NCBI GenBank assembly: GCA_018221305.1
Contig: JAAOYK010000055.1
Location: 1 to 59,656 of the forward strand
Reading direction: 5' to 3'
Length of the DNA: 59,656 nucleotides
From: Candidatus Pacearchaeota archaeon
GTDB lineage: Archaea; Nanobdellota; Nanobdellia; Pacearchaeales; GW2011-AR1
In this document: positions 22,856-38,293 of the stretch, piece after piece
Numbering within the stretch: position 1 is the first letter of the stretch
How the letters are laid out: every line of letters starts with the position of its first letter
Notes under the pieces: model-generated
Seen by the model: the letters and a program-made list of their open reading frames with translations, nothing else
What the model was told of the DNA's origin: nothing
The model's database searches: none
Position numbers and translations under genes: made by a program

Positions 22856-23806
22856 TTAGCAACTAAAAGTAGGATCGTATGGGGCTGGTAAGTGATCATT
22901 ATCAATATGTAGGTCTGAGAACCTACAATCAAATGATGTTGGCATTCCGACATCTGTACTATTAAAATATCTATAATCAACTAAAGTTTTTGTTGTCACA
23001 GTAACTCCTAGGTCTGATAAATTCTCAGGATTTATTAAAGATTCAATCCCATAACCTCCAGGGTTTGCAGAAAGATCTCCTTGAAGACGCTGTAAAAAAC
23101 TTGGCGCGTCATTATGTGCTATGTAATACGAATTTTTCCAGTGTTTTTCAAATTCATTATCATCAGTAAAATCAGGATGAATTGTCTTCAAAATCTTGTT
23201 TGTAACTCTTCCTTCTGTTTCCATATAATATATTGGGTCTTCAAAATTTGTTACAGGGATATAAACATCAAGGTCTATGTCTCTATTCCATGAGGCAAGT
23301 CCTGCATTATCTTTTATTGCTATGTCAACTTGTAAATTAACTTTTACTTTCCATGGATCATCTTGGCTTATTGTAAACTCTGGCACAGAACTATTAGACA
23401 CGTTTGCATTAATTTTTGCACCTGTTTCACTCATCTGGGTCATGATGTCATTAAAAGTAACCCCTTCCATTAAATCTAACCCGCCTTCATAACTTCCGTT
23501 ATTCATTGTTCCGTTAAACATCATTTCAGAAAAATTTCCTGGAATGTCTGAAATGTATTCATTTTCTTCAACAATTCGTTTTTCAAACAAAAAGATTACT
23601 CGAAATCCTGAGATATACAATTCTCGCTCTAAATCTTCTTGCACAGAAAATACAAAATTGTTAAGTGTCTGTATTCTTTTATTTACTGGTTCTCTGTCTT
23701 TTGTAATCGAATAAAATCCGTACGATAAGACAAAAAGTGATAGCAGCAAAATTATAAGCATTGTAAAAAACATGCCTTTTTTATTTTTTATTATGTTAAA
23801 TATCAT
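22856..23806 (-). CDS. pilin-like/pilus-associated protein (class III-type N-terminus)
   Basis: KNKKG|MFFTMLIILLLSLFVLSYGF. This is the last gene of the 6-gene minus-strand pilin operon. Confidence 0.5.
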   Translation of the reverse strand: MIFNIIKNKKGMFFTMLIILLLSLFVLSYGFYSITKDREPVNKRIQTLNNFVFSVQEDLERELYISGFRVIFLFEKRIVEENEYISDIPGNFSEMMFNGTMNNGSYEGGLDLMEGVTFNDIMTQMSETGAKINANVSNSSVPEFTISQDDPWKVKVNLQVDIAIKDNAGLASWNRDIDLDVYIPVTNFEDPIYYMETEGRVTNKILKTIHPDFTDDNEFEKHWKNSYYIAHNDAPSFLQRLQGDLSANPGGYGIESLINPENLSDLGVTVTTKTLVDYRYFNSTDVGMPTSFDCRFSDLHIDNDHLPAPYDPTFSC

Positions 23807-23832
23807 TCTTTATCTTTTAGACCTTTTTAGGC

Positions 23833-26800
23833 TTAGTCCCATCTCCTTATTTGAACCTCTGTTGACCACTCATACGGTATCCCTTCAAGCCTTGTAGAGG
23901 ATATCTGAAAATTGTCTTGAGTAAACTTAACATCAACTAATCTGTCATCATTAAAATCTAATGAGTTTAATAGGTTAAATGCTGCAATTTTTAATGAATC
24001 GTTTGTTAACGGTGCAAGTGATGAATTACAATAACCATCTCCACATTCACTATGTTTTGCTCCTCCAAAATAACATTTTTCTCCAAGATTATACGAGTCG
24101 GGTATTGGTAGATCATTTTCAGTACTTCCGTCAAAAAATTCTATTGTCCAGTCGCATCCCTCTGCATCATTAGATATTGCAGAGTATGCTTCTAATTTTT
24201 TTATCAGTGTTACTAATATGCTGTTATCTATTGACCCTTCACTATTTTGGTTTGGCTCTAGACCAGTATTCATCCGAACAATGTTTATATTAGCATTTTT
24301 GTTAATCATTGATGTAGGAATGTTTACTGCATAAGGATCTCCTAATTTAAGAAAAAAGTTTTGATATTCTCCAAGATCATAAGCTGTTTCGTACGGATTA
24401 CCATTATCTCTAATAAATACTTCGTTAGTCCAAAACGGGCCTGAATATGATATAACTTTTGCATCCAAAATTTTAAAATCTTTAGGCACAGTAAAATTTC
24501 CATGACGCGTGTCATTAAATGGCCAGTTTTGAGTCACAACAAGTCCTGCATTTCTATCTCTTAGATAATCAAACTCAATGTATGAATCAGGATCTAAGTA
24601 TGAATAAAATTGTCCAACAATTTCTAATGTCTGTTTTCGATATGTTGCATTCATTATATCATTTGCTATTTGCGCATAAAGCGCTTCAAGACCTCCCACA
24701 TTTCCAATATAATCAATACCATTCCCGCAAGTTGGTTCAACCATTTGTTCGAGTGTAATCTTTGCGCTTGCAGGTGCATTAAACGCTACTGTATATACTT
24801 TGATCCCGTATTTTTGATATGCCCTGCATGCAGCTGCAACAGCATAATCCGCAGGAAAATTTATACCAGCGATATCTGGAACATATCCCATTTCAGCACA
24901 CGGTTGAGTCGCCGAACCATCAGTCATAACAACCATAAATTTATCTCTGCCTTCTGATTCACATGTAGAAGAGCATCCGTCCCCATTTATTATATTACCG
25001 TCGTCACATTCTTCAGTACTATTTTTATAATCATCTCCACAAGTTTCTGAAAAATAGCATGCATTAAATGTTCCTGCAGCAGTGCATGAATGATAACCTT
25101 CATTTTCTAAAGCATCATAACACGTAACTCTATCTCCGTCACAAACTTCTCCTACTTCTACAATACCGTTATCACCACCTGCTGACTGATCATAAAGACC
25201 GCTTATTTCTGCAGGTGTTAATGTTTTGTCATAAAGTCTTACTTCATCAATAAATCCTTCAAAAAAGTCTGTTGGTGTATAATCAAAATCATCATCATAA
25301 TCTTGCCCAATAGTAAAATTTGTGTCAGGGCTTACAACTGTAAATCCTGCAGGTCCATCTATATCTGAAGTCCTTCCAGTAAGGTTATGTGTATAAACAT
25401 CTACATCATCAATATACATTTTAATAAATCTTGCATCAAAATCATAAGTCATAACAATATGATGCCAATTAGAATCTCTTATTGAAATAGCAGTGTCATA
25501 ATATTTATTATCCGTCTTAAGGTTTAAGTTATTAGTAACATCTCTAATCATTGCTCTGATGTCGTAAAACTCATCACTATTTTCATCCCACATCTTTATA
25601 TGATCTTGATAAAATGCAAATAATGTATCTTTATCAGAACCTGCATCACTTTTTGCCCAAAGTGATACTGAAAAATCATTATTACTTATATCCCCATTTT
25701 TTGTTATATATTTTGTAAAAAAGTCTGCTACAATATAATCATCACCACTCATTTTTAATGAATTACCTTCAATAACGTCAACAAGATCCGCAGAATATTC
25801 TTCTGTTCCTTTAAAGATTCCATCATTTCCTAAAGGACCTTTATCATCTGTAGTATTATCATCAAAGTCATAATAAGCAACCAACCCTGTAGATTTTGGT
25901 TGTACAAATTCCCAAACAGCCCTGTTTACTCCAGAACAAATATTTGTTCTTCCAACATCTCTCCAAGGAGAAACTTCTGCTTTTAATGATGTCTTATCAT
26001 CTGATAATTCATGATATTCTGTGTTACTTACATAAGATCCATAACCATTAACTCCTACTCTATTATTTCCAATTGCAGGATTCGTATCATTTAACATTAC
26101 ATCAATCAATCTTTTTGTCGCTCTTATTGATTCTGACATCTTAGAATTATAATCAGTCGCACTTCCCATACTTCCTGATAAATCATTAACCGAAACAACG
26201 TCAATATCTGCTTCAACTTGTGTAATTAATGATGAAGCATTTTTTATGCCTAACCTTACTGGAACAGTTGTTCGCGAAATTTTAGAATAATTAATTTGTG
26301 CATCAAAAGCAGCATCTGTTATTTTTTTAGTTACAAGACCTACAGCTTTTGTAGTAATATCTGTTGTGTTCCCTAGTTCAAACGTTTTGTTACCAATTGC
26401 CAAAAATATGTCAAGACTACTATTAAACCTGATACTTGCGTTCATTTTGTTTATTTGTCCAGGGATATAAAATCCATCATAAACATTTAAAAATCCTTCA
26501 ATCCCAGGAAAATAATATTTTTTTGGTTGTTCATACTCGTCTAATGGGTCATAAATAATCTTTAGATATCCTCCAGCAATATGCAACTTTTCTGTAGCAC
26601 TATGCAGCTTCACATAATCAACAGATTTACCAAACTGATCTAACCTGTTGTTTGGAATAGTGCATGTGCTAGGTGTAAAGTCATTTACTGCTGCACTACA
26701 TGAAATCATTTTTCCAGGGTTCACTGGCGGGTTTATTGAAACTTTAAAATTATAAGGTATTGTGTGCACTATTTCTGCGCTTTGTATTGTACCATTAAAA

Positions 26801-27351
26801 TCTACTCTAAGAGTTAAATCACCTTCACCAACATAACCGCCAAAATAAAAATGTTTTGTTCTGTTAAGCGCGCTCAAAAATGCTCGCGCAGAATATCCAG
26901 TTATTCCTTTATCACTTATCCCACTAATAACATGACGTTCTACATCAATATTTTTTGCAGCTGCTAAAGAAAACGGCGTATTATTATTTTTTGCAGCAAC
27001 ACATTTATTGTCATACCAAATCCCAATTTTTTCTTTTGTCTTTAACTGATTTAATGTTATATTAGCAAGCTCTACTGCCTTTTCTCTGTCTCCTTGAGAA
27101 ATAAAAATTCCAATTTGTTCAATTATTGTTTTGGATCCATCAGTAACATCACCATCATTTATCCACTGAGTAACTGTTGCGTTATTAATTTCTCCAATTT
27201 TTAAAGTTGTTAAAACTCTTATCAAATCTCCTTGAATCTCAGACCTTTTCTGTGAAGATTTTACAATTGGGAACGCAACCGTTAAAACAATAATTATTAT
27301 TGATAATGCGATTAACGCATCCATACTAAAAAATGCACCTCTTTTTTTCAT
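23833..27351 (-). CDS. giant pilin-like adhesin: class III signal peptide + vWA domain interrupted by LamG(Laminin_G_3)-like and Cys-rich-repeat modules
   Basis: The N-terminus is MKKRG|AFFSMDALIALSIIIIVLTVAF. The MIDAS motif is DLSGS (aa 390-394), with VVMTDGSA at aa 807-814. The LamG_3 signature is FSVSLWAKSD...NWHHIVMTYD...FEGFIDEVRLYDKTLTPAEISGLY. The Cys repeat is ETCGDDYKNSTEECDDGNIINGDGCSSTC. It is collinear with the paralog at 27356..29818 apart from a ~320-aa insertion. Confidence 0.8.
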   Translation of the reverse strand: MKKRGAFFSMDALIALSIIIIVLTVAFPIVKSSQKRSEIQGDLIRVLTTLKIGEINNATVTQWINDGDVTDGSKTIIEQIGIFISQGDREKAVELANITLNQLKTKEKIGIWYDNKCVAAKNNNTPFSLAAAKNIDVERHVISGISDKGITGYSARAFLSALNRTKHFYFGGYVGEGDLTLRVDFNGTIQSAEIVHTIPYNFKVSINPPVNPGKMISCSAAVNDFTPSTCTIPNNRLDQFGKSVDYVKLHSATEKLHIAGGYLKIIYDPLDEYEQPKKYYFPGIEGFLNVYDGFYIPGQINKMNASIRFNSSLDIFLAIGNKTFELGNTTDITTKAVGLVTKKITDAAFDAQINYSKISRTTVPVRLGIKNASSLITQVEADIDVVSVNDLSGSMGSATDYNSKMSESIRATKRLIDVMLNDTNPAIGNNRVGVNGYGSYVSNTEYHELSDDKTSLKAEVSPWRDVGRTNICSGVNRAVWEFVQPKSTGLVAYYDFDDNTTDDKGPLGNDGIFKGTEEYSADLVDVIEGNSLKMSGDDYIVADFFTKYITKNGDISNNDFSVSLWAKSDAGSDKDTLFAFYQDHIKMWDENSDEFYDIRAMIRDVTNNLNLKTDNKYYDTAISIRDSNWHHIVMTYDFDARFIKMYIDDVDVYTHNLTGRTSDIDGPAGFTVVSPDTNFTIGQDYDDDFDYTPTDFFEGFIDEVRLYDKTLTPAEISGLYDQSAGGDNGIVEVGEVCDGDRVTCYDALENEGYHSCTAAGTFNACYFSETCGDDYKNSTEECDDGNIINGDGCSSTCESEGRDKFMVVMTDGSATQPCAEMGYVPDIAGINFPADYAVAAACRAYQKYGIKVYTVAFNAPASAKITLEQMVEPTCGNGIDYIGNVGGLEALYAQIANDIMNATYRKQTLEIVGQFYSYLDPDSYIEFDYLRDRNAGLVVTQNWPFNDTRHGNFTVPKDFKILDAKVISYSGPFWTNEVFIRDNGNPYETAYDLGEYQNFFLKLGDPYAVNIPTSMINKNANINIVRMNTGLEPNQNSEGSIDNSILVTLIKKLEAYSAISNDAEGCDWTIEFFDGSTENDLPIPDSYNLGEKCYFGGAKHSECGDGYCNSSLAPLTNDSLKIAAFNLLNSLDFNDDRLVDVKFTQDNFQISSTRLEGIPYEWSTEVQIRRWD

Positions 27352-27355
27352 TTGT

Positions 27356-29818
27356 TTACCTCCACGTTCTTATTTGTACCTCTGTTGACCAACTATAGGG
27401 AATCCCCATAATCTCATTAGATCCAATATCAAAATTTTGATCAGTGAACATTACATCTAATAGCCCATCATTATCAAAATCTAATAACTTTAATAATCTA
27501 TATGTTGCAATCTGAACAGCATCATTACTATTTTCACAATTACTACCGTCACAGTTCATGCCTCCAAACGTATTATTTCCATAATTACAATTTATTCCGC
27601 CAGAATAATTTAATGGTATTGCTAAACTTTGGTTTGATCCGTCATTAAAATATAATGTCCAGTCACAACCTTGCGAGACTGGGGAAAGTTTTGAGTAAGC
27701 AATCAGGTTTGTTGAGATTGTATATATTACTTTGTTGTTTATTGATCCTGGTGAATGGTTTCCTGGATAAAGTCCTGTCGTAAGGTTGATAGTGTTTGGG
27801 CTTGCTAGTGAAACTAAATATGTAGGAATATTAACAACATATGGGTCTCCAAGTTTTATATATTCGTCTCCATACTCTTCCAAATCATATATTGTATTAT
27901 TATTCATAGTTAATCTGTTTGTCCAACGCGGACCAGAGTATGATATAACTTGCGTGTTGATAACTGTAGAGTTTGGAGGTATCTGAAACGTTGCTGTGTA
28001 TGGGTCATCAAAAGGTTCTTCAATTGTAGCAATTAATCCTGTATAAGTATCTCTGTCATACCCAAACTCAATGTACGAATCCTCTGTAAGGTTTGTTCGG
28101 TAACTTCCAGACTGTACGATTATTGTTTGTTTTTTGTATGCCAAATTTATTATATCTTCTGCAACTTTTTCATAAATACTTACTAAATCATCAATATCAC
28201 TTTCATAATAAGTTCCATTCCCGCAAGCCGCAATAGGTATCAGGTTTGCAGTCTCAACTATCTTTCCAAAACCTACAACATTTATCATTATTTCATGATT
28301 ATTCCATGCATCACATGCAGCATCTATTGCGTCCTGTACACCGTCAGCAGTGCTACATCCTTGGTTTGCTTTCCCACTACCCATAACAACTACTGACCTA
28401 AAATTATTAGGATCTGACTGCGCCAAAAGATAATTTACTCCTGCTTCTATGCCGCAACATAAACAATCATTTTCACCAAGATTTGTGTCAACCCAGCTTT
28501 CATCTAGTTTGTCATACAATGTAGATTTAGTATTAGTTAATTCTAGATAATTTTGTGGGTATACTGCCGTTTTATATCCCACAAGCCCTACGTTTGTTGT
28601 TGATTCGTTTAATAACATGTCAATAAGTCTTTTATTTGCATGATATGACTGATTGATAAGTGTTGTGCTGTACCCTGCCCCAAGATTTTTGTTCATTTCT
28701 CCTGAAAGGCTTGAGACAGAATAAACATCAGCTTCAACATTTCCTCCTAAGACATAAGAAGCGTTTAATATACCAAAACGCAACGGAACTGTTTTTCTAC
28801 TTAAATCACTATAATCAAGCAAAGAATCAAGTATTGAATCATCTATGACAATGTTTTCCATCCCACTTGTGTTTCCTTGATAAACTGTAACATTTCCTAT
28901 TGTTAAAAAAGTAGATACTTCACTATCAAAGTTCAAATTAATGTCCATTGTGTTTAGTGTACCTGGGATATAAAAACTATCATAAAGGTTCATAATACCT
29001 TCAACCCCTGGAAAATAATATCTTTCAGGTTCTTCATATTCAATAGCACTATCATAAGTAACTTTTATGAAACCTCCTGCAATGTGTAAGCTTTCGTCCA
29101 AAATTTCTATAATGTTTACACCTGAATTAAAATCAGTTATAGGAAGTGTATATGTTCTTGGCGTAAAGTCATCAACAGACTTTTCATAAGCTCCAGCAAA
29201 GTTTGAGTTAACATACACACTAAAATTTTTATCAATTGCAAGCTCCATTGTTGCACTACTAATATTTCCGTTGTATTCAATACGCGCGCTTAAATTTCCT
29301 TCACCAACATATCCTCCAAAATAAAAATATTTTGTTTGCATTGTATTTTTTAAAAATGCTCGTGCAGAATATCCTGTTAAAGAGCTTCCATTACTAATAC
29401 CTGAAACTGTCTGACGTTCTACCCCTACTTGGACAGCGTCACTGTATGGTGTGTTATTCATTGATGCAAGAAGCGTGTTTCCATACCAAATCCCTATATT
29501 TTCTGTAGTGTTTAAGTTTGATAATATTGCTGTTGCAAGTCCTTGTGCTAACGTAATATTTGTAACATAAAATTCTCCAATTTGTTCTAATATGTTTTTG
29601 TTATAATCAGTGATTTTTCCTTGAGCTTTTAGATTATCAACATAAGCATTATCAATCTCTCCGATCTTTAAAGAAGATAAAACCCCTTGAAAATCTCCAC
29701 TAATGTCAGAATCTTGGTTGGAAAATTGAATAATTGGTATTGTAAATCCTACAACTATTAAAATTATTATAAGTGCTACTAATGCGTCGAAGCTAAAATA
29801 TGCTGCTCTTTTTTTCAT
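27356..29818 (-). CDS. giant pilin-like protein: class III signal peptide + vWA-like domain with degenerate MIDAS
   Basis: The N-terminus is MKKRA|AYFSFDALVALIIILIVV. It aligns end to end with 23833..27351 (for example GYSARAFL, YFYFGGYVGEG, LHIAGG, YYFPG.EG, ISYSGP.WTN, KLGDPY.VNIPT, QGCDWT, GIPY.WSTEVQIR). The MIDAS position reads SLSGE instead of DLSGS. A DFDNDGLLD Ca-binding-like loop lies near the C-terminus. Confidence 0.75.
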   Translation of the reverse strand: MKKRAAYFSFDALVALIIILIVVGFTIPIIQFSNQDSDISGDFQGVLSSLKIGEIDNAYVDNLKAQGKITDYNKNILEQIGEFYVTNITLAQGLATAILSNLNTTENIGIWYGNTLLASMNNTPYSDAVQVGVERQTVSGISNGSSLTGYSARAFLKNTMQTKYFYFGGYVGEGNLSARIEYNGNISSATMELAIDKNFSVYVNSNFAGAYEKSVDDFTPRTYTLPITDFNSGVNIIEILDESLHIAGGFIKVTYDSAIEYEEPERYYFPGVEGIMNLYDSFYIPGTLNTMDINLNFDSEVSTFLTIGNVTVYQGNTSGMENIVIDDSILDSLLDYSDLSRKTVPLRFGILNASYVLGGNVEADVYSVSSLSGEMNKNLGAGYSTTLINQSYHANKRLIDMLLNESTTNVGLVGYKTAVYPQNYLELTNTKSTLYDKLDESWVDTNLGENDCLCCGIEAGVNYLLAQSDPNNFRSVVVMGSGKANQGCSTADGVQDAIDAACDAWNNHEIMINVVGFGKIVETANLIPIAACGNGTYYESDIDDLVSIYEKVAEDIINLAYKKQTIIVQSGSYRTNLTEDSYIEFGYDRDTYTGLIATIEEPFDDPYTATFQIPPNSTVINTQVISYSGPRWTNRLTMNNNTIYDLEEYGDEYIKLGDPYVVNIPTYLVSLASPNTINLTTGLYPGNHSPGSINNKVIYTISTNLIAYSKLSPVSQGCDWTLYFNDGSNQSLAIPLNYSGGINCNYGNNTFGGMNCDGSNCENSNDAVQIATYRLLKLLDFDNDGLLDVMFTDQNFDIGSNEIMGIPYSWSTEVQIRTWR

Positions 29819-29888: not shown

Positions 29889-30434
29889 TTATTCTTCCCA
29901 AATGTAAAGATAAGCCGTAATCGGTTTATTTTTATATATTGTAAACCGTGTGATTTTCACCAGGTTTTTTGCATTAGAATAAACATCTTTTCCGATGACA
30001 GGGTTTGTAGCAGGATTATTATCTCCATCTAGATTCATATCTTCTTCTAAAAAAAATCTGTACTCATAACGTGTATTAAAAACCTTTTTTGTAAATGTAT
30101 AATTGCCATTACCATCACTATTATCACTTAAGTCCCAAAACGCTTGAAGCTTTTTGTCATCAATCTTGTTTGACGAGTTTAAAATTCCAATTTTCATTAT
30201 ATTGTTATGATCAGCAGTAGCTAATGGTACCAATGTCTCCCAATTTGTAGGATAACCTTCAGACATTAAAGAGTCCATTACAAGTTTTCCATTATGATAT
30301 AAGTATTCAAACTTTTCCTTAGTATCTCCTGGACTGTTTAATGTGTAGATAAAGAAAAGCATTATGCCAAACGTGAACAATGTTACAGCTACCATTAAAT
30401 CTATGCCCCATGTTTGTGCTTTTTTATTTTTCAT
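29889..30434 (-). CDS. pilin-like protein (class III signal peptide)
   Basis: MKNKKA|QTWGIDLMVAVTLFTFGIMLFFIY. Confidence 0.55.
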   Translation of the reverse strand: MKNKKAQTWGIDLMVAVTLFTFGIMLFFIYTLNSPGDTKEKFEYLYHNGKLVMDSLMSEGYPTNWETLVPLATADHNNIMKIGILNSSNKIDDKKLQAFWDLSDNSDGNGNYTFTKKVFNTRYEYRFFLEEDMNLDGDNNPATNPVIGKDVYSNAKNLVKITRFTIYKNKPITAYLYIWEE

Positions 30435-30446: not shown

Positions 30447-30878
30447 TTAAGGTACTAATGTAATAGATATTACTTCCCCTGTTTTGCTTATCTTGTTTTT
30501 ATCAGGGTTTGTGTTTAGTGTAAAAGGGTTTGTAGCAACATTAACTTCTGCTATAGGTAACATTAGTGAATGAGCATTATCTGTTGTTTTTACATAAACA
30601 GCATTATCAGAAATTTGTACATCATACGTTTTACCATCAATTCTTGCAGGAAGCGTAAACTCACGTTCATATCCATTTGCAGCTTTTACTGCCAAGGAAA
30701 TCTCGTTTTGTACTTCTAGTGCCACTTCATTAGTTAACAAGTCCCGTTTTTCATTTATTCTATCAAAGTTAACTTCATATATTGTGACAACCAAAATAGT
30801 AAAGAAAAAAAACACTGCACCAAAAACTATTATGAACTCAATACCTACTTGTGCTTTTTTTTTGTTTTTTTTTATCAT
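30447..30878 (-). CDS. archaeal pilin, DUF361/EppA-substrate-like (Q at +1, E at +5)
   Basis: MIKKNKKKA|QVGIEFIIVFGAVFFFFTILVV. There is a 4-nt ATGA overlap with the upstream pilin gene. Confidence 0.65.
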   Translation of the reverse strand: MIKKNKKKAQVGIEFIIVFGAVFFFFTILVVTIYEVNFDRINEKRDLLTNEVALEVQNEISLAVKAANGYEREFTLPARIDGKTYDVQISDNAVYVKTTDNAHSLMLPIAEVNVATNPFTLNTNPDKNKISKTGEVISITLVP

Positions 30879-31318
30879 CCTTGACTAATAACTGCATGAC
30901 TTGCGTCTGCTTCGATAATTATCATTTTCACACCAGATGCTATTGTTATTGGATTTGAACTATCTATCATAATAGGTACATCAGATTTAAAAGATAACTT
31001 TTGCTCTCCTGAAGATGCTGTAATATTAATCAATAGATAATATAATCCATTATAATACACAGCATCTATACCACTAATCCCTTCTGGAAGGAATGGGTAA
31101 ATTGTAGCTTTTGATGGCTCTCCTGCATAAAATACTGTCCTAGAAGCGCCGACTACTTTATTTCCAAAATTATGTATTTGTGTTTCTTTTAATTGATCAC
31201 CTGAGGTTGTGCTATAATAAAGTCCAATACCAAGAATGCCAGTTATAATAATTGTTAAAAATCCTACAAGTATTAAATACTCCATACTTACCTGCGCTTT
31301 ACTAGAAATGTTTTTCAC
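30875..31318 (-). CDS. archaeal pilin, DUF361/EppA-substrate-like (Q at +1, E at +5)
   Basis: MKNISSKA|QVSMEYLILVGFLTIIITGILGI. This is the first gene of the operon. Confidence 0.65.
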   Translation of the reverse strand: MKNISSKAQVSMEYLILVGFLTIIITGILGIGLYYSTTSGDQLKETQIHNFGNKVVGASRTVFYAGEPSKATIYPFLPEGISGIDAVYYNGLYYLLINITASSGEQKLSFKSDVPIMIDSSNPITIASGVKMIIIEADASHAVISQG

Positions 31319-31443
31319 TTTTTCCTTCTACCTCTTTTTATAAATGAGTTATGTTTTGTTGATTAATAAACTTATTGTTAAGTTTAAAAACAATACATTT
31401 ATAAAATTAATAATATATATCATAATAATTATAATACTATACA
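31319..31443. promoter_or_regulatory. divergent promoter region of the pilus locus
   Basis: A 125-nt very AT-rich spacer between divergent operons. TTTATAAA boxes lie at 31337-31344 (19-26 nt from the minus-strand ATG) and 31398-31406 (38-46 nt from the plus-strand ATG). Confidence 0.5.
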
Positions 31444-32361
31444 ATGGCAAAAGAGGTGATAAAAGTAGTAACTATTGGGAGCTTAGCATTTCTAGGATTA
31501 ATTTTTGTTAACACTATCCTTTTGTTTTTAGGTCATGAAAGTTCTCCTGGGATTACTGGTAATTCTGTTGCTGACAGTTTAAAAGAGGTTTATACAGAAA
31601 TGTCACTAGCGTCAAAGATTTTCTTGTTAGTACAGTTCATTGCATTATTAATAATTTTTATTTATTTTATTATTAAAGCAAGAAAATCTATTAAAGAACG
31701 TGACGAAATTGCTCATTTAAATGTTGTAAAAAATCCTGGAGGATCAAAGACTGATATTGACACGTTATATGAAATTTTAAAAGATAGAAAACAAATAAAC
31801 ATTCCATCAGTTGGTAAAGCTTTTCGTGTTAGTAAAGAGTTAGCAATGGAATGGTGTCGTATTTTAGAAAATAATGATTTAGCAACAATTGATTATCCTG
31901 GTTTTATTGGAGATCCTTCAGTAAAACTTGCTGTACCAGAATCAGAAAAAAGTAAAGACAAAAAAGATAAAGATAAAGACAAAAAATCAGACGATAAAAA
32001 GGACGATAAAAAGGATGATAAAAAAGATGATAAAAAAGATGAGAAAAAGATAGATAAAAAAGATGTGGACGAGAAAAAGGATGATAAAAAGCCTGACCAA
32101 GATAAAACTAATGTAGAAAAACCTACTGAAACTGCTGCCCAAAAACCAAAAAAACGTTTTAATATATTTAAAAAGAAAAAGCCATTAGACACTTCAGTAC
32201 CTGTAGCACAAAATGTAGGGGTTACAGACAAAGATAAAAAATGGGTAAGTGAGGCAATAAAAAAAGGATTAAATGAAAAAGATGTTAGTAAATTATTGCA
32301 AGGGTTAGAAAAAAGTAAAAGAGAACAAATTGTTAATTATTATAAATCTGTTTCAAAATAA
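31444..32361 (+). CDS. pilus-locus membrane protein: 2 TM + globular segment + poly-(K/D) linker + C-terminal ~40-aa helical module
   Basis: The TM segments are VVTIGSLAFLGLIFVNTILLFLG and IFLLVQFIALLIIFIYFII. A KDDKK-type low-complexity tract covers aa 169-218. The C-terminal WVSEAIKKGLNEKDVSKLLQGLEKSKREQIVNYY is shared with the N-terminus of 35932..37005. Confidence 0.6.
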   Translation: MAKEVIKVVTIGSLAFLGLIFVNTILLFLGHESSPGITGNSVADSLKEVYTEMSLASKIFLLVQFIALLIIFIYFIIKARKSIKERDEIAHLNVVKNPGGSKTDIDTLYEILKDRKQINIPSVGKAFRVSKELAMEWCRILENNDLATIDYPGFIGDPSVKLAVPESEKSKDKKDKDKDKKSDDKKDDKKDDKKDDKKDEKKIDKKDVDEKKDDKKPDQDKTNVEKPTETAAQKPKKRFNIFKKKKPLDTSVPVAQNVGVTDKDKKWVSEAIKKGLNEKDVSKLLQGLEKSKREQIVNYYKSVSK

Positions 32362-32392: not shown

Positions 32393-34069
32393 ATGGCAAG
32401 AAAAAAAGTAATAAAGAAAAAAAATATAAAAAGAAAAGTTATCAAACGTAAAACTGCAAACGTAGTAAGGACAAAAGTTCGAGCCTCTAGGCCGGTTGTA
32501 CCAAAAAGACTTCCAAGCACATCAAACCCTATGCAGTCAGCAATTAAAGGTCATGTGTCTCAAAAGCCTGAAAAAAGACGTCCAGAAGTTCTTGAAAGAT
32601 ATTTTATTGAGGCAGAAAAATCTAAAATAAAGATTGAGATCCAGAGAAGAGGTACAACAACGACTTATGTTGTCGAGGCACCAAAAATTAATGAAGCTAC
32701 AGCAGCCCTTCTTGATGAGGTTAGGGATGAATTAGTTACTGCAACATCTGTTGGAATGAACGAAATCATGGACTCTGGAGCTATTAAAAATATGAAGAAA
32801 CGTTTTGGTATTGAGGCAGGAACTTTAATAGCAAAAAAATTGCCTCATATTAATAAAGATACTCAAAGTATCCTGGTTAACAAATTAATGCAAGACATGC
32901 TTGGTCTAGGCGAGATTGAATTTTTAATAAATGATCCTCATTTAGAAGAAATAGTTATTCCTTCATCAAAAGAAACAATACGCACGTATCATAAAAAGTA
33001 TGGCTGGCTTCCAACAAATCTTCGCATTGCTCGTGAAGATGAAATTGTTAATTATTCAAACATTATAGCGCGTCGTGTTGGACGACAAATTACAGTGCTT
33101 ACACCATTGCTTGACGCTCATTTAGTATCAGGTGATAGAGTAAATGCTATACTTTACCCAATAAGTAGTAAAGGTAACACTATAACTATCAGAAAGTTTG
33201 CACGTGACCCTTTTACAGTAATAGACCTTATAACAACAAAAACTTGCAGTGTTGAAGTTACTGTACTTTTATGGCTTGCTATTGAGTATGAGATGAATGT
33301 TTTAATTTCAGGAGGTACAGCGTCAGGTAAAACCTCACTACTTAACGCATGCATTCCTTTTATTCCTCCAAATCATAGAATTATTAGTGTAGAAGATACC
33401 CGTGAATTAATGCTTCCTGAATTTTTATACTGGACACCTCTTGTTACACGTACTCCTAATCCTGAAGGTAAAGGGGAAGTTTCAATGTTGCATTTATTAG
33501 TAAACTCACTGCGAATGCGTCCAGACCGTATAGTTTTAGGTGAAATGCGGCGTAAAGAAGAAGCAATGGTTTTATTTGAAGCAATGCATACAGGACACTC
33601 AGTGTATGCTACTCTTCATGCAAACACTGTTGCAGAAACGTTGTCGCGTCTTACAAACCCTCCACTAAGTGTTCCTGCAAACTTATTGTCAGCAGTTAAT
33701 CTAAACGTTGTAATGTTTAGAGATAGGAGACGAGGGATACGGCGTGTCTATCAAGTAGGTGAATTTAATGTAAGCAATGACCGGGCAGAAGCAAACATTT
33801 TATATCGATGGAGTCCTGAAGAAGACAAAATATTAAAACATACAGATAACATGCGAGTCTTTGAAGATATTGGTAGAAATACTGGAATGGGTCGCGCACA
33901 GATTAATAGAAATTTGGAAGAAAAAAAGTTTATTATTAACTGGATGATAAAAAATAAGTTCAGATCTTTAGAAGATTTTGGTAAAGTCATGCAACAGTAT
34001 TATGGTGACAAAGAATTTTTAATAAAAAATATTAGGGCTAATAATAGTAAAGCAATAATTGGGAGATAG
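32393..34069 (+). CDS. type IV pilus/archaellum assembly ATPase (ArlI/FlaI-PilB-VirB11 family) with polybasic N-terminal extension
   Basis: Walker A is SGGTASGKTSLLNA. Asp/Glu boxes include IISVEDTRELMLP. Walker B is RPDRIVLGEMRRKEEA, and the His box is HTGHSVYATLHAN. The N-terminal ~65 aa are Lys/Arg-rich (MARKKVIKKKNIKRKVIKRK...). Confidence 0.85.
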   Translation: MARKKVIKKKNIKRKVIKRKTANVVRTKVRASRPVVPKRLPSTSNPMQSAIKGHVSQKPEKRRPEVLERYFIEAEKSKIKIEIQRRGTTTTYVVEAPKINEATAALLDEVRDELVTATSVGMNEIMDSGAIKNMKKRFGIEAGTLIAKKLPHINKDTQSILVNKLMQDMLGLGEIEFLINDPHLEEIVIPSSKETIRTYHKKYGWLPTNLRIAREDEIVNYSNIIARRVGRQITVLTPLLDAHLVSGDRVNAILYPISSKGNTITIRKFARDPFTVIDLITTKTCSVEVTVLLWLAIEYEMNVLISGGTASGKTSLLNACIPFIPPNHRIISVEDTRELMLPEFLYWTPLVTRTPNPEGKGEVSMLHLLVNSLRMRPDRIVLGEMRRKEEAMVLFEAMHTGHSVYATLHANTVAETLSRLTNPPLSVPANLLSAVNLNVVMFRDRRRGIRRVYQVGEFNVSNDRAEANILYRWSPEEDKILKHTDNMRVFEDIGRNTGMGRAQINRNLEEKKFIINWMIKNKFRSLEDFGKVMQQYYGDKEFLIKNIRANNSKAIIGR

Positions 34070-34075: not shown

Positions 34076-34960
34076 ATGAAATTTAGAATTCCATTTACTT
34101 TTTCGGACATTGATAAGTTGAAGCGAAGGTCTTCATTTATTTCTCAAAGGATTAAAAGGAAAAAAAATTCAAAACTTAAAGAAGAACTTGAAAGTGCTGG
34201 TATTGATATAACACGTGAAGAATATATAGGTGTTTGTCTTAGAAATTTGATTATAATTTTTATTTTCACTTTTGTTGTTGCTACTTCATTTTTCGCAGTA
34301 GCAAACCAGAAAATTTTTTACATCTTAGGCCCAGGAGTAGCCTTAGTAATCTCTTCTTTTTTATTTTTTATGCAGATAATGTTTCCAAAACTTTATATTA
34401 CAAAAAAACAAAAAGATATTGAACGTAACTTGCTTTATGCATTAGAAGACATTTTGATTCAATTAAACTCTGGTGTACCTCTTTTTGACATTTTGAGAAA
34501 TATTTCATATGCAAACTATGGAGTTTTAAGTGACGAATTTAAAAAAGCAGTACATCGTATAAATTCAGGCGAGCCAGAAGTTGCGGTTCTGGCAGATATT
34601 GGAAAACGTAACCCGTCTGTCTTTTTAAAACGTACATTATGGCAAATAAGTAATGGTCTTAATGCAGGAAGTGACATGTCTTTAATTGTTCGGGACAGTA
34701 TAAAAACTTTAAATGAAGAACAATTGATTCAGATCCAAAGTTATGGTAACAAATTAAATCCATTAATAATGTTTTATATGTTGTTATCAGTCATTGTCCC
34801 TTCTTTATCTGTAACTTTTTTAACAATTTTGGCATCAATGGCTGGCATGAATAAGCAGATAACGATAGGTGCTTTTGCAGGACTTTTTTGTTTTGTAGTC
34901 TTGTTTCAAATAATGTTTTTAGGTCTTATTAAATCACGTCGTCCAAGTTTGTTAAGTTGA
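34076..34960 (+). CDS. pilus platform membrane protein, single T2SSF domain (TadB/TadC-like half of ArlJ/PilC)
   Basis: The cytoplasmic helical T2SSF-like segment (LLYALEDILIQLNSGVPLFDILRNIS...SDEFKKAVHRINSGEPEVAVLADIGKRNPS) is flanked by TM helices. Confidence 0.75.
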   Translation: MKFRIPFTFSDIDKLKRRSSFISQRIKRKKNSKLKEELESAGIDITREEYIGVCLRNLIIIFIFTFVVATSFFAVANQKIFYILGPGVALVISSFLFFMQIMFPKLYITKKQKDIERNLLYALEDILIQLNSGVPLFDILRNISYANYGVLSDEFKKAVHRINSGEPEVAVLADIGKRNPSVFLKRTLWQISNGLNAGSDMSLIVRDSIKTLNEEQLIQIQSYGNKLNPLIMFYMLLSVIVPSLSVTFLTILASMAGMNKQITIGAFAGLFCFVVLFQIMFLGLIKSRRPSLLS

Positions 34961-35886
34961 AAAAAATGAATTATAGAAAAAAAATATCACGTCTTACAGA
35001 AAAGGAAAAGAAAACATTAAGACGTAGACGTCTGTCTACAATTATTTTAGCTATCTTAACAAGCTTTGTTTTGTTTGCAATCTATAGGACTCCTTTAATA
35101 CCAATCATTGGCTTTTTTAGTGCAATTGTTATAATCTTTTTATTTTTTCATTTTAGTGACGGTTTTAAAAAATCTGGACGTATTAATAAGATGGAAACAG
35201 TTTTTCCAGACTTTTTACAGTTAGTGTCGAGCAACCTTCGGGCTGGAATGACTGTTGATAAATCAATAATGCTTGCCGCACGTCCAGAGTTTGCACCTTT
35301 AGACGAAGAAATTATACAGACAGGTAAAGATATAACAACTGGCAAAAATATTGAACGAGCATTAAAAGATTTGTCATATCGTATAGGTTCTGATAAGATC
35401 GGAAAAACAATTTTAATAATCATTTCAGGTATTAGGGCAGGAGGAGACATTGCAGTACTTTTAGATGAAACAGCTGGTAACATGCGTTCACGAGAATTTG
35501 TAGCAAAACGTGCAGCATCACAGGTCTTAATGTATGTAATTTTTGTATTTTTTGCTGTAGCTGTCTTTGCACCAGGCTTGTTTGCTTTGTCAAATGTTTT
35601 AGTTTTTACAATGGATAATCTGATAGGAGACATTGATACAAGCGCTGTTCAAGGATCCAGTTATATATCTTTTCAAAAGATTAGTGTTTCTTTAGACTTT
35701 ATACTATATTATTCAATAATTTTTATAGTATGTATTGATATTTTAGCATCATTAGTTATTGGCTTGGTTAATAAAGGTGAAGAACGTGAAGGTCTCAAAC
35801 TTCTTCCTTTTATGATAGGACTAAGTCTTGGATTATTTTTTCTGTTAAAGATTGTAATATCCAATATAATGGGAAAACTAATTTAG
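34957..35886 (+). CDS. pilus platform membrane protein, single T2SSF domain (second half)
   Basis: FPDFLQLVSSNLRAGMTVDKSIMLAARPEFAPLDEEIIQTGKDITTGKNIERALKDLSYRIGS is flanked by TM helices. The track uses a TTG start at 34957, which overlaps the upstream stop. The first ATG is at 34966. Confidence 0.75.
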   Translation: MKKMNYRKKISRLTEKEKKTLRRRRLSTIILAILTSFVLFAIYRTPLIPIIGFFSAIVIIFLFFHFSDGFKKSGRINKMETVFPDFLQLVSSNLRAGMTVDKSIMLAARPEFAPLDEEIIQTGKDITTGKNIERALKDLSYRIGSDKIGKTILIIISGIRAGGDIAVLLDETAGNMRSREFVAKRAASQVLMYVIFVFFAVAVFAPGLFALSNVLVFTMDNLIGDIDTSAVQGSSYISFQKISVSLDFILYYSIIFIVCIDILASLVIGLVNKGEEREGLKLLPFMIGLSLGLFFLLKIVISNIMGKLI

Positions 35887-35931: not shown

Positions 35932-37005
35932 ATGGCTCGAAAAAAAGTTGTAAAAAAGAAATCTAAAAAGAGAACATTAAAAAAACGTCCAACCAAAAAA
36001 AGAGTTGCAAAACCAAAAGTTGATACTTTTGGGCTTGATAATGAAAGTCTTTCTTGGGTAAAACAATCAATAGATAAAGGTTTTGAACGCGCGCAAGTTG
36101 AAAAATTATTAAAAGACGTTGACGCAAGCCAAAAACAAAAAATGCTTTCATATTATGATGCTTTAAATAAGATCCCTGACAGTAGCGAATCTTCTATGCA
36201 AGAGACAGTTAGTGCTTCAGAACCAGTCGCAGAAAAAAAATCTGCTCCGATTAGTAGTTATGAACCAGAAATCAAGCCAACAAAAGCTCGCGGTCATAAA
36301 GTTCCAAGCGGAATTTTAGGTCTTGACAAGTTAACTCATGGAGGATTTGAAAACCATTCAACAAACCTTTTGGTCGGAGGAAGTGGTACTGGGAAATCAA
36401 TATTTTCTATTCAGTTCTTGGTTGAAGGCGTTAGAAAGGGTGACAGATGTTTATATATTACTTTTGAAGAACGTAAAGGAGAATTTTATACTAATATGAA
36501 AGAACTTGGCTGGGATCTTGCAAAAATGGAGAAAAATAATAAATTTTATTTTTTGTCTTACACTCCTGAAAAAGTAAAAACAATGCTTGAGGAGGGCGGC
36601 GGAGAAATTGAAAGTATGGTATTAACAAATAAAATCAACCGTATTGTAATTGATAGTATTAATGCATTTATCATGATGTTTGATAATGACCTGCAACGTC
36701 GTGAAGCGTCTTTAAAACTATTTTCTCTGCTTAGAAACTGGAACAGTACTTCAGTTTTAATCTATGAACGTGACCCTTTGGTTGACAAAAGATCTTCTTC
36801 CAGAGTGCTCGAGTTTGAATCAGACTCACTCATCTTTCTGTACTTTGTTCGCTTAAGGCGTCAACGAGAACACTTTATGGAAGTTTTTAAAATGAGAGGC
36901 TCAAATCATTCAAAAGAGATCCATCCTTATGTTATTACTAAGGGTGGTATAAAGGTTACAACAGCCCCTTACGCAGGAAATCTTGACAAGTTTAGGACTG
37001 TGTAA
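35932..37005 (+). CDS. KaiC/ArlH(FlaH)-like RecA-superfamily ATPase with polybasic N-terminus and ~40-aa helical module
   Basis: Contains SGILGLDKLTHGGFENHSTNLLVGGSGTGKS (Walker A) and RIVIDSI (Walker B), with a KaiC-like single-domain length (~230 aa). The N-terminus MARKKVVKKKSKKRTLKKRPTKKR precedes WVKQSIDKGFERAQVEKLLKDVDASQKQKMLSYY. Confidence 0.8.
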   Translation: MARKKVVKKKSKKRTLKKRPTKKRVAKPKVDTFGLDNESLSWVKQSIDKGFERAQVEKLLKDVDASQKQKMLSYYDALNKIPDSSESSMQETVSASEPVAEKKSAPISSYEPEIKPTKARGHKVPSGILGLDKLTHGGFENHSTNLLVGGSGTGKSIFSIQFLVEGVRKGDRCLYITFEERKGEFYTNMKELGWDLAKMEKNNKFYFLSYTPEKVKTMLEEGGGEIESMVLTNKINRIVIDSINAFIMMFDNDLQRREASLKLFSLLRNWNSTSVLIYERDPLVDKRSSSRVLEFESDSLIFLYFVRLRRQREHFMEVFKMRGSNHSKEIHPYVITKGGIKVTTAPYAGNLDKFRTV

Positions 37006-37041: not shown

Positions 37042-37236
37042 TTATTTTTTCTTAGCAGACCTATACTTTTTCCATTCATATATTGCAAACAATATTGAAA
37101 GAATACCAATAATGATCCAGCTCACTGAATTTATACTAAACTCTTTAGTTATTATGGACAGTATTCCTACTATTACTATAATTATCCCTGCAATAAGTCC
37201 TGCTATTGCATTAATAAAATAAATTGCTTTTCCCAT
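37042..37236 (-). CDS. small 2-TM membrane protein
   Basis: 64-aa ORF with two hydrophobic helices and a basic tail. Confidence 0.4.
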   Translation of the reverse strand: MGKAIYFINAIAGLIAGIIIVIVGILSIITKEFSINSVSWIIIGILSILFAIYEWKKYRSAKKK

Positions 37237-37239
37237 TTA

Positions 37240-37452
37240 CTAAACCTCCTTTTTTTGAGTTAAACCTTTTTTAATTTTTACTGCTTGAATAATTTCTTTA
37301 ATAGCTATCACTGCGCCTATTGCTGCTCCAATAAATATGATAACAGCAAAAGGCATATTGCCATCATTAAGAAACTTGATCCCATAGTAAATAATTCCTA
37401 TGACAAAAAGAATTCCTACAATTCCCCATATCAGTTTTTTTGTATTTATCAT
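37240..37452 (-). CDS. small 2-TM membrane protein
   Basis: 70-aa ORF with two hydrophobic helices. It sits in tandem with 37042..37236, separated by 3 nt. Confidence 0.4.
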   Translation of the reverse strand: MINTKKLIWGIVGILFVIGIIYYGIKFLNDGNMPFAVIIFIGAAIGAVIAIKEIIQAVKIKKGLTQKKEV

Positions 37453-37549: not shown

Positions 37550-37616
37550 CTTAAAAAAAATAAAAAAAAGATAACCCTAACACCTTCTTTCATCCTTTTT
37601 TGGTTGAAAGGGTTAT
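37550..37616 (-). terminator. hairpin + U-run terminator downstream of the major pilin gene
   Basis: The minus strand reads AATAACCCUUUCAACC...GGUGUUAGGGUUAU (ATAACCCT/AGGGTTAT stem, 37571-37616), followed by UCUUUUUUUUAUUUUUUUU. Confidence 0.55.
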
Positions 37617-37656
37617 TTATTTTTAAATATAAAAATAAAAAAAATAAAAAGTTTAA

Positions 37657-38127
37657 TTATGCTTGAACTTTGGCACTTATTGAACCAGTAGACTGATGAA
37701 CTAAACCAGCACCACCTGCTTTTATATACGTGATCACAATATTTGCTCTAAAATCTTCACCTGCTGTCAATGCACATCCTGCAGGACCGTTAACTACTGA
37801 ATCAGCTCCTGATGCTAAAGTAGTTGTTATTACTGTTGCAGCACCATTACATGTTGCTTCAGTAGCATCACTAAGTGTGAAAGTAACAGTATTTACACTC
37901 TCTGCACCACCATTTCTGATATTAAAAATTGCGTCTGGAGCACCAGTACCACTAAGTATAAAATCATTAAGAACAAATGGGGCGCTTACTGCAGCAACTT
38001 CACTACCAACATTACTTAAGTACAAGTATCCTATAGCTCCAATAACTATTATCGCGGCGAGGATTGCCCAACCGTAAGTCATTAAGAACTCCATAGCAGC
38101 TTGTCCCTTCTTTTTTCTATATAACAT
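37657..38127 (-). CDS. major pilin candidate, DUF361/EppA-substrate-like class III signal peptide
   Basis: MLYRKKKG|QAAMEFLMTYGWAILAAIIVIGAIG, followed by a Gly/Ala/Thr/Ser-rich beta-type domain. A perfect GGAGGTGA SD (38143-38150) lies 15 nt upstream of the ATG at 38127. The GTG at 38145 used in the track lies inside the SD. The gene is monocistronic with its own terminator. Confidence 0.75.
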   Translation of the reverse strand: MLYRKKKGQAAMEFLMTYGWAILAAIIVIGAIGYLYLSNVGSEVAAVSAPFVLNDFILSGTGAPDAIFNIRNGGAESVNTVTFTLSDATEATCNGAATVITTTLASGADSVVNGPAGCALTAGEDFRANIVITYIKAGGAGLVHQSTGSISAKVQA

Positions 38128-38293
38128 TTTTATTATTTTCCTCACCTCCTTTCACTTTCTTTTTTAAATCATTAACTCTCATACCCTTATATCTAAATAT
38201 AAACGAATAATGATTTTTAGTCTAGTTATACTTTATGTTTTTACGTATATAAATGTTTTCTTTTTTTTCATTAATGAAAAAAATTGCATTTTT

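Follow-up and report, generated by a model that had tools for sequence, protein, structure and literature searches.

A contig of 59,656 nucleotides (nt) from a Candidatus Pacearchaeota archaeon (JAAOYK010000055.1 of GenBank assembly GCA_018221305.1), which we will call the window and by which we always mean this whole stretch of DNA, contains 12 tightly packed open reading frames (ORFs) between positions 22856 and 38145. These genes form a genuine 12-gene type IV pilus locus, and not a chance adjacency. The locus quite likely encodes an adhesive type IV pilus that carries an adhesin at its tip and that is not an archaellum, and this pilus is probably a cell- or surface-attachment organelle of archaea of the Pacearchaeota/Woesearchaeota type (the Pacearchaeota are classified by NCBI in the kingdom Nanobdellati, formerly DPANN). 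An initial annotation, made from the letters of the window alone, had described the locus as an atypical machine bearing a hallmark of the archaellum. The type IV pilus-like machine in a DPANN-type genome that it proposed is borne out by domain searches and by relatives in Pacearchaeota and Woesearchaeota, and so are its parts, namely a secretion ATPase, a two-gene platform, a conserved KaiC-family ATPase, minor pilins, giant pilin-adhesins with a von Willebrand factor type A (vWA) domain, and a separate major pilin. The atypical, archaellum-hallmarked character that it gave to this machine was overstated, and the locus is better described as a DPANN-specific adhesive variant of the archaeal type IV pilus.

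The case for a genuine locus is carried first by its constancy across genomes. The window proteins were searched in a comparison set of 80 loci from different species-level Pacearchaeota/Woesearchaeota/Nanoarchaeota genomes, many of them truncated; a fully covered subset comprises 37 loci, whose flanks reach at least 9 kb upstream and at least 6 kb downstream (Table 1). The complete gene set survives at least three rearranged gene orders in these 80 genomes. The adhesin arm is divergent from the ATPase arm, as in the window, in 12 loci, it lies downstream of the KaiC-family gene on the same strand in 20, and in the odd rearrangements the KaiC-family gene stays in the cluster, either with the adhesin module (locus L069) or at the far end of the minus arm (L050 and L057). 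The divergent junction between the genes of the small 147-amino-acid (aa) pilin and of the 305-aa membrane protein recurs in nearly all 80 loci, and another Pacearchaeota contig (L082) displays the same layout from independent gene calls with precomputed Pfam domains. The clustering of all the ORFs of the 80 loci brought out no further conserved member, and in particular no prepilin peptidase, MinD/TadZ or KaiB; the other recurrent neighbours look by eye like housekeeping genes (ribosomal protein L15e-like, topoisomerase-like and Met-tRNA-synthetase-like). As for the KaiC-family gene, the initial annotation had named its chance adjacency to the ATPase gene as one observation that would speak against its proposal. 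Since this gene is a conserved member of the cluster, present in 35 of the 37 fully covered loci, chance adjacency fails as an explanation. In 31 of these 37 loci, it is found at most 1.5 kb after the second platform gene, on the same strand in 26 cases, and the gap between the two genes has a median of 36 nt over the 45 same-strand cases of all loci, which suggests that they are co-transcribed. At the level of sequence, the locus is a conserved signature of DPANN archaea of the Pacearchaeota/Woesearchaeota type.

Table 1. Features of the pilus locus in the window, and number of compared loci in which each protein family was found
Feature	Position	Strand	Remarks	Loci with family (of 80)	Fully covered loci with family (of 37)
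316-aa minor-pilin-like protein (family 'p316')	22856..23806	-	NKKG/IFFT class III-type N-terminus	52	32
1172-aa modular pilin-adhesin	23833..27351	-	Laminin_G_3; intact residues of the metal ion-dependent adhesion site (MIDAS); 820-aa paralog		
820-aa modular pilin-adhesin, canonical family length	27356..29818	-	Pfam VWA; AlphaFold2 (AF2) model; Foldseek	55 (vWA giant family)	
181-aa minor-pilin-like protein	29889..30434	-	KKAQ/AWG.DL N-terminus	56	33
143-aa small pilin	30447..30878	-	K.Q/SAIEF.IL; paralog of the 147-aa pilin	61	34
147-aa small pilin	30875..31318	-	KRGQ/IS.EYLIV (family consensus)	67	35
Divergent AT-rich intergenic spacer, 125 bp	31319..31443	.	TATA-like boxes toward both arms		
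305-aa membrane protein	31444..32361	+	2 transmembrane (TM) helices, winged-helix-like domain, poly-K/D linker, three-helix C-terminus	78	37
558-aa pilus assembly ATPase, archaeal FlaI/GspE-type T2SSE family	32393..34069	+	Pfam T2SSE 5.5e-35; intact catalytic boxes	80	
Platform protein, N-terminal half	34076..34960	+	One T2SSF domain, 3.1e-14	80	
Platform protein, C-terminal half	34957..35886	+	One T2SSF domain, 7.3e-14; 4-nt overlap with the preceding platform gene	77	
357-aa single-domain KaiC-family ATPase	35932..37005	+	Pfam KaiC PF06745 6.5e-55	58	35
Stand-alone major pilin candidate, ~156 aa	37657..38127	-	KKGQ/AAMEFLMTYGWAILAA N-terminus; beta-rich globular domain	47	31

Each ORF was found where the initial annotation had placed it. 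The minus arm (31318 down to 22856) encodes proteins of 147, 143, 181, 820, 1172 and 316 aa, in this order, with intergenic distances that go from a 4-nt overlap up to 70 nt. The plus arm opens with the 305-aa protein, continues with the T2SSE ATPase and the T2SSF pair, and reaches the KaiC-family gene after 45 nt. That these divergent arms share an AT-rich spacer had been proposed and is confirmed, as the spacer has 15% G+C against 32% in the window and contains TTTATA/TTTAAA boxes directed at both arms. The stand-alone pilin gene is in convergent orientation, preceded by the motif GGAGGTGA and followed by a T8AT8 run; we used the ATG at 38127 as its start, while the mechanical ORF (162 aa) begins at the GTG at 38145. 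From the signals that had been attributed to this gene, the upstream motif and the downstream T-runs stand, but the terminator hairpin looked for at its 3' side was no better than in shuffled sequence (z = -0.95) and was rejected.

The core machinery has three of the components that define type IV filaments (TFF), namely a T2SSE ATPase whose catalytic boxes are all intact (Walker A at residue 307, Asp box at 332, Walker B at 378 and His box at 400), a T2SSF platform, and subunits with class III signals and a hydrophobic N-terminal helix. Indeed, the profile searches that the initial annotation had called for on each ORF found T2SSE, two single-domain T2SSF, KaiC, VWA and Laminin_G_3. The ATPase scores 292 bits with the NCBIfam FlaI (ArlI) model, under the cutoff of 550, and against the PDB it comes closest to the GspE of A. 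fulgidus (219 bits), ahead of FlaI (188) and CpaF (165). It also has a weak match to PilB3_C (E 0.021), a Pfam domain that many of its orthologs carry. This ATPase has thousands of relatives, which in metagenome-assembled genomes (MAGs) of DPANN archaea share 56-72% identity with it; the best 120 listed share 61-72% and are assigned, where named, to Pacearchaeota, Woesearchaeota, Nanoarchaeota or an 'archaeon', and public MAGs contain near-identical loci by the thousands under generic names. In an exhaustive search of representatives, the nearest named ATPases from other lineages than Pacearchaeota and Woesearchaeota were those of Altiarchaeales (42% identity) and Nitrosopumilaceae (35%). As far as bit scores and similarity searches go, these results show that the ATPase belongs to a DPANN-specific clade, be it within System 1, 2 or 4A. 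Many representatives of the family (P0244, P0246-P0248 and P0251-P0255, among others) are about 1000-1200 aa long and match the query in two stretches, at about 65-336 and 305-555, which are parted by about 500 aa, the pattern expected of a post-P-loop intein.

The platform is encoded by two genes with one T2SSF domain each. The first protein aligns to positions 6-248 of 555 of an NCBIfam ArlJ model, and the second one to positions 176-463 of 465 of an ArlJ model and 264-432 of 484 of the UpsF model. Because they map to the N- and C-terminal halves of ArlJ/UpsF, the platform is genuinely split and not duplicated. The ArlJ models score 41 and 28 bits, against cutoffs of 550 and 400.

The filament side of the locus is conserved as well. 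All six proteins of the minus arm had been credited with class III signal peptides, and indeed they and the stand-alone pilin display class III-type N-termini ([KR][GA], then hydrophobic) that are conserved over 47-67 orthologs per family, including 50 orthologs of the 316-aa protein. The label 'DUF361-type' that had been given to the two small pilins stands for these conserved N-termini, but not for the family match itself, as the Class_IIIsignal (DUF361) model scores 19.6 bits for the 147-aa and 13.5 bits for the 143-aa pilin, under the cutoff of 23.7. The 143-aa pilin has in addition a sub-threshold match to DUF7266 (26.6 bits), and the two pilins are paralogs, with an hhalign probability of 96.7% between their families. 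For the 316-aa protein, no Pfam or NCBIfam match was obtained, and its family profile finds nothing in the PDB. The stand-alone pilin has a nearly invariant N-terminus, and its profile matches solved archaeal type IV pilins, namely the archaeal type IV pilus of P. calidifontis termed 'flagellar-like' (8FK7, E 8.6e-4), 8Q30 (E 0.017) and 8FJ5 of H. volcanii (E 0.44), so that it is predicted to be a globular archaeal pilin and not a short pilin of the Flp/Epd type. Given its N-terminus, its monocistronic position and its conservation, it is the best candidate for the major pilin.

The adhesive function is suggested by the two giant proteins. The 820- and 1172-aa proteins are paralogs with 40-43% identity, the larger one having an insertion of about 325 aa. 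The 820-aa protein contains a Pfam VWA domain (9.7e-08) and has 489 relatives at E<=1e-5; 120 of these were listed, and the majority of them cover the full query at 40-51% identity. Its AF2 model, built from a 60-sequence alignment, reaches a predicted local distance difference test (pLDDT) score of 84.5 and begins with a hydrophobic helix (10-32) and a small helical region, after which come a beta-rich domain (107-350), the vWA domain (363-562) and a C-terminal beta domain (575-820). With this model, Foldseek retrieved vWA domains that include those of the S. sanguinis modular pilin PilB, a type IV pilin, and of the pilus tip adhesins SpaC and Mfa5. In the family, the MIDAS motif (D-x-S-x-S...T...D) is canonical in 52-58 of 60 members, and it is intact in the 1172-aa copy (DLSGS at 390-394, T469 and D810). 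This copy has the conserved N-terminal domains after its class III-type N-terminus, then a vWA domain interrupted between the MIDAS Thr and Asp by a lectin-like Laminin_G_3 module (1.8e-18) and a Cys-rich repeat, and finally the conserved C-terminal beta domain; the NCBIfam model myxo_disulf_rpt is above its cutoff at residues 769-800, and VWA, VWA_2 and DUF4215 are sub-threshold in Pfam. Thus, a vWA domain with MIDAS behind a pilin-type N-terminus, as in vWA pilus adhesins, is found in the 1172-aa copy and in the family consensus. Among the 49 loci with a full-length adhesin, the window is the only one to carry a tandem pair. The loss of four of the five MIDAS residues from one copy, next to the intact site and the LamG plus Cys-repeat insert of the other, suggests that the duplicates underwent sub- or neofunctionalisation after tandem duplication.

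The heads of these adhesins differ between genomes, while both ends are conserved. The head can consist of the vWA domain alone, or of the vWA domain with LamG, with DUF4215, or with PF13385 and PF02973, the latter combination including a sialidase-N lectin-like domain. Adhesins of about 1130 aa are found in 8 loci (L005, L031, L032, L039, L044 and L061 among them) and have a W-rich repeat region (WNGT.W...) of about 300 aa inserted in the vWA domain, which by eye resembles a beta-propeller. In 7 other loci (such as L006, L024, L033, L035, L038 and L041), the adhesin has about 630 aa and no recognisable vWA region. Because the head varies while the ends stay conserved, the comparison suggests that the adhesin is a conserved scaffold for incorporation into the pilus that bears a diversifying ligand-binding module.

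The last two conserved proteins are the KaiC-family ATPase and the 305-aa membrane protein. The former has a single KaiC domain (residues 124-344 in Pfam) with all the motifs of a single-domain archaeal KaiC-like ATPase intact (Walker A GGSGTGKS at 149, catalytic EE in TFEER at 177, Walker B VIDS at 239, and KMRGSNHS, a KxRGxxH motif, at 320). There is one such domain and not the tandem CI and CII of circadian-type KaiC, and a KaiB-like gene is not among the conserved families of the 80 loci. The protein stays under the cutoff of every named NCBIfam subfamily (159 bits for KaiC_arch_3 with a cutoff of 249; 53 bits for ArlH with a cutoff of 215; 40 and 25 bits for the FlaH models). Against the PDB, its core is closest to the isolated KaiC CI domain (about 104 bits), followed by PH0186 (92), PH0284 (84) and SSO2452 (74), while FlaH of S. 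acidocaldarius (4YDS) gives 25 bits. The initial annotation had called this protein KaiC/ArlH-like and had taken such a partner of the ATPase as the hallmark of the rotary archaellum motor. Neither the likeness to ArlH nor this reading is supported: since the protein fails the ArlH model and is far closer to true KaiC, it is not an ArlH ortholog, and KaiC-family ATPases are known from loci of type IV pili (T4P) that are not archaella (Makarova 2016; Denise 2019), including that of the P. calidifontis pilus (Kreutzberger 2023).

In the conserved core of the 305-aa protein, two TM helices precede a cytoplasmic domain that has about 60 aa (about residues 100-160) and the consensus TDLD.LY..LK.KK....S.IAK.F.V.KE.AMEWCKILE.G.LA.I.YP. 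In a low-confidence AF2 model, residues 102-150 have a helix-strand-helix-helix-strand (H-E-H-H-E) order that is compatible with a winged helix. Downstream of the core, the protein continues with a poly-K/D linker, which is lineage-specific, and ends with a small domain of three helices (262-304, pLDDT about 86). The protein has no Pfam match, its profile finds nothing significant in the PDB (the best being the winged helix-turn-helix protein 2D1H at E 0.44), and a word-indexed homolog search returned one relative only. Considering that its gene comes first in the ATPase operon and that it combines a membrane anchor with a cytoplasmic domain, we infer that it acts as a scaffold or regulatory partner of the motor.

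In this genome, the two proteins share a domain of about 45 aa, situated at the C-terminus of the 305-aa protein (32215-32358) and in the N-terminal part of the KaiC-like protein (36028-36177; BLASTP E 2e-06), with the consensus KKW...AI.KG......LL......K....YY. It is predicted to be a three-helix unit (pLDDT about 86 in AF2, where the copy of the 305-aa protein was the one modelled). The closest database relative, P0241, also carries it at its C-terminus, but the 80 related loci do not have it. In the KaiC-like protein, it belongs to a lineage-specific N-terminal extension, basic and three-helical, which most orthologs do not have. This shared module hints that the two proteins might contact a common partner or each other. 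We considered a relationship of the module to ArlD/E and rejected it, as the sub-threshold match to Arch_fla_DE (13.5-15.9 bits for a cutoff of 21) occurs in one of three copies only. Both ATPases of the locus also start with near-identical, highly basic tails, MARKKVIKKKNIKRKVIKRK (32393-32520) and MARKKVVKKKSKKRTLKKRPTKKR (35932-36020), whose long forms are not conserved in orthologs.

These elements can be assembled into a mechanism. By homology, the ATPase would form a hexamer of the FlaI/GspE type that powers the split platform, which in turn would extract from the membrane the prepilins processed at their class III signals, the stand-alone pilin being the presumed subunit of the filament. 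By analogy with bacterial minor pilins and TadE/F, the 147-, 143-, 181- and 316-aa proteins could constitute a priming or tip complex, and this complex would load the giant adhesin at the filament tip through the pilin-like N-terminal helix of the adhesin itself. The variable head of the adhesin (vWA with MIDAS, with or without lectin-like inserts) would then bind a ligand on a host cell or surface; in this genome, one copy appears to have kept its MIDAS and gained LamG, and the other to have lost its MIDAS. The KaiC-like ATPase and the 305-aa protein would form a cytoplasmic accessory module whose most likely function, dependent on ATP or phosphorylation, is to gate or position the assembly ATPase, as ArlH does for ArlI, in a machine that would not be rotary. 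We give about an even chance to this specific role of the KaiC-like protein. The prepilin peptidase is presumably encoded outside the locus.

Several observations weigh against this account of an adhesive pilus. The MIDAS of the 820-aa copy is degenerate, with four of its five residues replaced (S370, S372, E374, D451 and S481 for D, S, S, T and D). In the fully covered loci, the KaiC-family gene was not found within +/-10 kb in 2 of 37, and among the 31 where it comes directly after the platform genes, 5 have it on the opposite strand. The AF2 model of the 305-aa protein, made from a 2-sequence alignment, is poor (pLDDT 54). A prepilin peptidase of the A24 family was not matched by Pfam, which was run for this purpose on the cluster proteins and 10 further ORFs of the window, nor is it among the conserved families of the 80 loci, so that prepilin processing is assumed; the class III prepilin peptidase is usually encoded away from the pilus locus. 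Finally, attachment to a host and adhesion to abiotic surfaces or biofilm formation are not separable from sequence.

Three other explanations, and a bolder version of our own, have to be weighed against an adhesive pilus of this kind. The rather doubtful first one concerns only the KaiC-like gene, which would be a general signalling hub that merely neighbours the pilus genes, the rest still being an adhesive pilus. Makarova and co-workers reportedly proposed, in 2017, KaiC-like ATPases as hubs of archaeal signal transduction. CirA of H. volcanii is reported to be a KaiC-like regulator of motility, and the KaiC-like gene of the locus is on the opposite strand in the five loci mentioned and relocated in a few others. 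It nevertheless remains within the cluster through every rearrangement seen, the short gap to the platform gene speaks for co-transcription, and the 80 loci have neither KaiB nor another output partner as a conserved neighbour.

The bolder version, which we deem improbable, sees in the locus a host-capture organelle shared by the Pacearchaeota and Woesearchaeota, which rank among the most widespread uncultured DPANN archaea, and in which a KaiC-like hexamer and the membrane-anchored winged-helix-like protein would form an ArlH/ArlX-like cytoplasmic ring on the pilus ATPase, as a living intermediate from static type IV pili towards the archaellum with regulated extension and retraction or torque, and in which the swappable tip adhesin would set the host range. 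A related and still less probable explanation is an archaellum-like or 'proto-archaellar' organelle, rotary or dynamic, with the KaiC-like protein in the role of ArlH, the 2-TM protein as an ArlX-like scaffold, and motility or the reeling-in of a host as its function. The KaiC-family gene is indeed tightly linked to the ATPase and platform operon, and a membrane-anchored cytoplasmic protein is encoded by the first gene of this operon, a place that arlX takes in crenarchaea. Moreover, the best solved relative of the pilin belongs to the P. calidifontis 'flagellar-like' pilus, whose locus has a KaiC gene and whose filament is discussed by the authors as an intermediate towards archaella, and the KaiC N-terminal extension gives the weak Arch_fla_DE match already described (15.9 bits at best). 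However, the ArlH and ArlI models are matched only under their cutoffs, no Arch_flagellin or other archaellin or stator family matches any cluster protein in Pfam, the P. calidifontis filament has no supercoiling and is classed as a pilus, and giant tip adhesins favour adhesion. As for the Arch_fla_DE match, it is not shared by the two other copies of the small domain, and the extension that contains it is missing from most orthologs.

Equally hard to sustain is a machine of the pseudopilus type, that is a short piston or 'bindosome'-like device for the display or secretion of vWA and lectin proteins, or a DNA-uptake pilus: archaeal TFF machineries have been proposed to be functionalised with binding proteins that carry class III signals, the ATPase has a distant NCBIfam match to the bindosome ATPase BasE (143 bits), and the scavenging dependence of DPANN archaea would make DNA or nutrient uptake plausible, but the BasE score is far under its cutoff of 1000 and under that of FlaI, the dedicated, near-invariant stand-alone pilin with its globular domain resembles filament-forming archaeal pilins, and no gene for substrate-binding proteins, ABC transporters or DNA translocation (ComEC-like) is conserved in the 80 loci.

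The adhesive pilus can be situated among the known systems, to several of which it bears partial likeness. The first is clade 2/System 2, the PilA-based pili exemplified by PilB3C3 with PilA1-6 of H. volcanii and by GspE of A. fulgidus. The window ATPase has this GspE as its best solved relative and PilB3_C in many of its orthologs, and the stand-alone, globular major pilin is PilA-like. KaiC-family genes and large adhesin-like proteins have been recorded in clade 2 (Makarova 2016; Sivabalasarma & Albers 2026), and 'many' clade 2 loci carry two tadC genes. Unlike this system, whose platforms are given as single genes in the 2026 census (Sivabalasarma & Albers 2026), the window has a split platform; there is no euryarchaeal ortholog among the nearest relatives of its ATPase, and its set of minor pilins and its 2-TM winged-helix-like protein are without detectable counterparts.

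The second likeness is with the Epd-like pili of System 1 (Epd of M. maripaludis), which also have two single-T2SSF genes beside the ATPase and a secondary ATPase of the RecA/KaiC type; in Epd-like loci, a FlaH-type secondary ATPase (arCOG04148) adjoins the ATPase and the two platform genes (Denise 2019). Clade 1 loci include large lectin-like (DUF2341) proteins, and System 1 has been reported in some DPANN (Sivabalasarma & Albers 2026). The Tad pilus is a bacterial derivative of Epd-like pili, and the vWA pilin-like protein of the window parallels TadG. A tblastn of plasmids with the ATPase returned only bacterial CpaF, at 31% identity. The major pilins of Epd and Tad are short and without globular domain, whereas that of the window has about 140 aa in its mature form and a beta-sandwich-like domain; unlike in Tad, no TadZ/MinD gene is conserved in the locus and there is no secretin. 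The initial annotation had implied that a platform split as in Tad was unusual. Split platforms are in fact the rule in clade 1/System 1, common in clade 2 and present in the DPANN subsystem 4A, whose loci have a PilY-like adhesin. The locus thus mixes a split platform and secondary ATPase like those of System 1, a globular pilin like that of clade 2, and minor pilins and an adhesin specific to the lineage.

Three further comparisons complete the picture. The pilin of the P. calidifontis 'flagellar-like' pilus is the best solved match of the window pilin, albeit a weak one; that pilus is encoded in a T4P locus with a KaiC-family ATPase and no stator genes (Kreutzberger 2023), and it differs by its source, a hyperthermophilic member of the Thermoproteales. 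As in the vWA modular pilins and adhesins (PilB of S. sanguinis, TadG and PilY1), a pilin-type N-terminus is combined in the window with a vWA domain with MIDAS, next to minor pilins, and the predicted structure of the 820-aa protein aligns with S. sanguinis PilB with a TM-score of 0.42, normalised to the target. The window adhesins are, unlike those proteins, archaeal and much larger (820-1172 aa), with extra conserved N- and C-terminal beta domains and a swappable insert inside the vWA domain. As in the archaellum motor (ArlH-ArlI-ArlJ), an ATPase, a platform and an ATPase of the KaiC superfamily are found in one operon. Unlike in this motor, the platform is split, and the ArlH, ArlI and ArlJ equivalog models are all matched under their cutoffs only; the initial annotation was right to find no archaellin, ArlF/G, ArlC/D/E or ArlX genes here, as no Pfam family of these matches any cluster protein, Arch_fla_DE being sub-threshold only.

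The claim that this is not a characterised system is true for those characterised experimentally, but the types of component have each been documented before, and the locus is within the catalogued diversity of archaeal TFF. What appears undescribed in the literature searched is the fixed 11-12 gene architecture across Pacearchaeota and Woesearchaeota, with its class III-signal vWA mega-adhesins with swappable heads, its 2-TM winged-helix-like protein and its ATPase akin to KaiC proper. We know of no Pacearchaeota or Woesearchaeota in culture. A widely cited groundwater study found that, of the DPANN lineages, Pacearchaeota had the strongest enrichment in the host-attached size fraction (>2.5 um), and the same study treated type IV pili as 'missing in DPANN genomes'; given these two points, the locus provides a practical candidate for the attachment organelle. 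Its near-invariant pilin, four minor pilins and head-swapping adhesin are candidates for electron cryotomography, surface metaproteomics and the prediction of host range. The KaiC-family ATPase, for its part, offers another natural case of such a protein in a non-archaellum pilus, and this bears on how ArlH was recruited to the archaellum.

We finally mention some observations that lie beside the main locus. In L082, a ParA/MinD/CbiA-family ATPase (16824-17561) is encoded downstream of the KaiC gene, at a distance of about 2.3 kb; the other loci do not conserve it, and none is found near the window cluster. MinD-type ATPases, which are homologous to TadZ, have been proposed as partners of archaeal clade 1/2 pili. 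Between the KaiC and pilin genes of the window, on the minus strand (37042-37452), there are two small ORFs, of 64 and 70 aa, which resemble two-TM membrane proteins and have faint Pfam matches only; no counterpart was detected in the 80 loci, and they may or may not be genuine genes. At the edge of the window (69-2196, minus strand), four consecutive ORFs of 171, 156, 185 and 180 aa have class III/Pilin_N-like N-termini, e.g. KKKGVSPIIATVLLILIVIILA. Their globular parts are unrelated to the pilins of the main locus, they have no Pfam match at E<0.01 and a nearby match in one of the 80 related loci only, and the cluster touches the window edge and may extend past it. Two larger ORFs are unrelated to the pilus locus: one of 793 aa (51913-54294), without Pfam match, begins with a hydrophobic, signal-peptide-like N-terminus, and the other (55472-56593) encodes a 373-aa protein that has a Schlafen AlbA_2 domain (3e-20) and whose N-terminal region looks hydrophobic.

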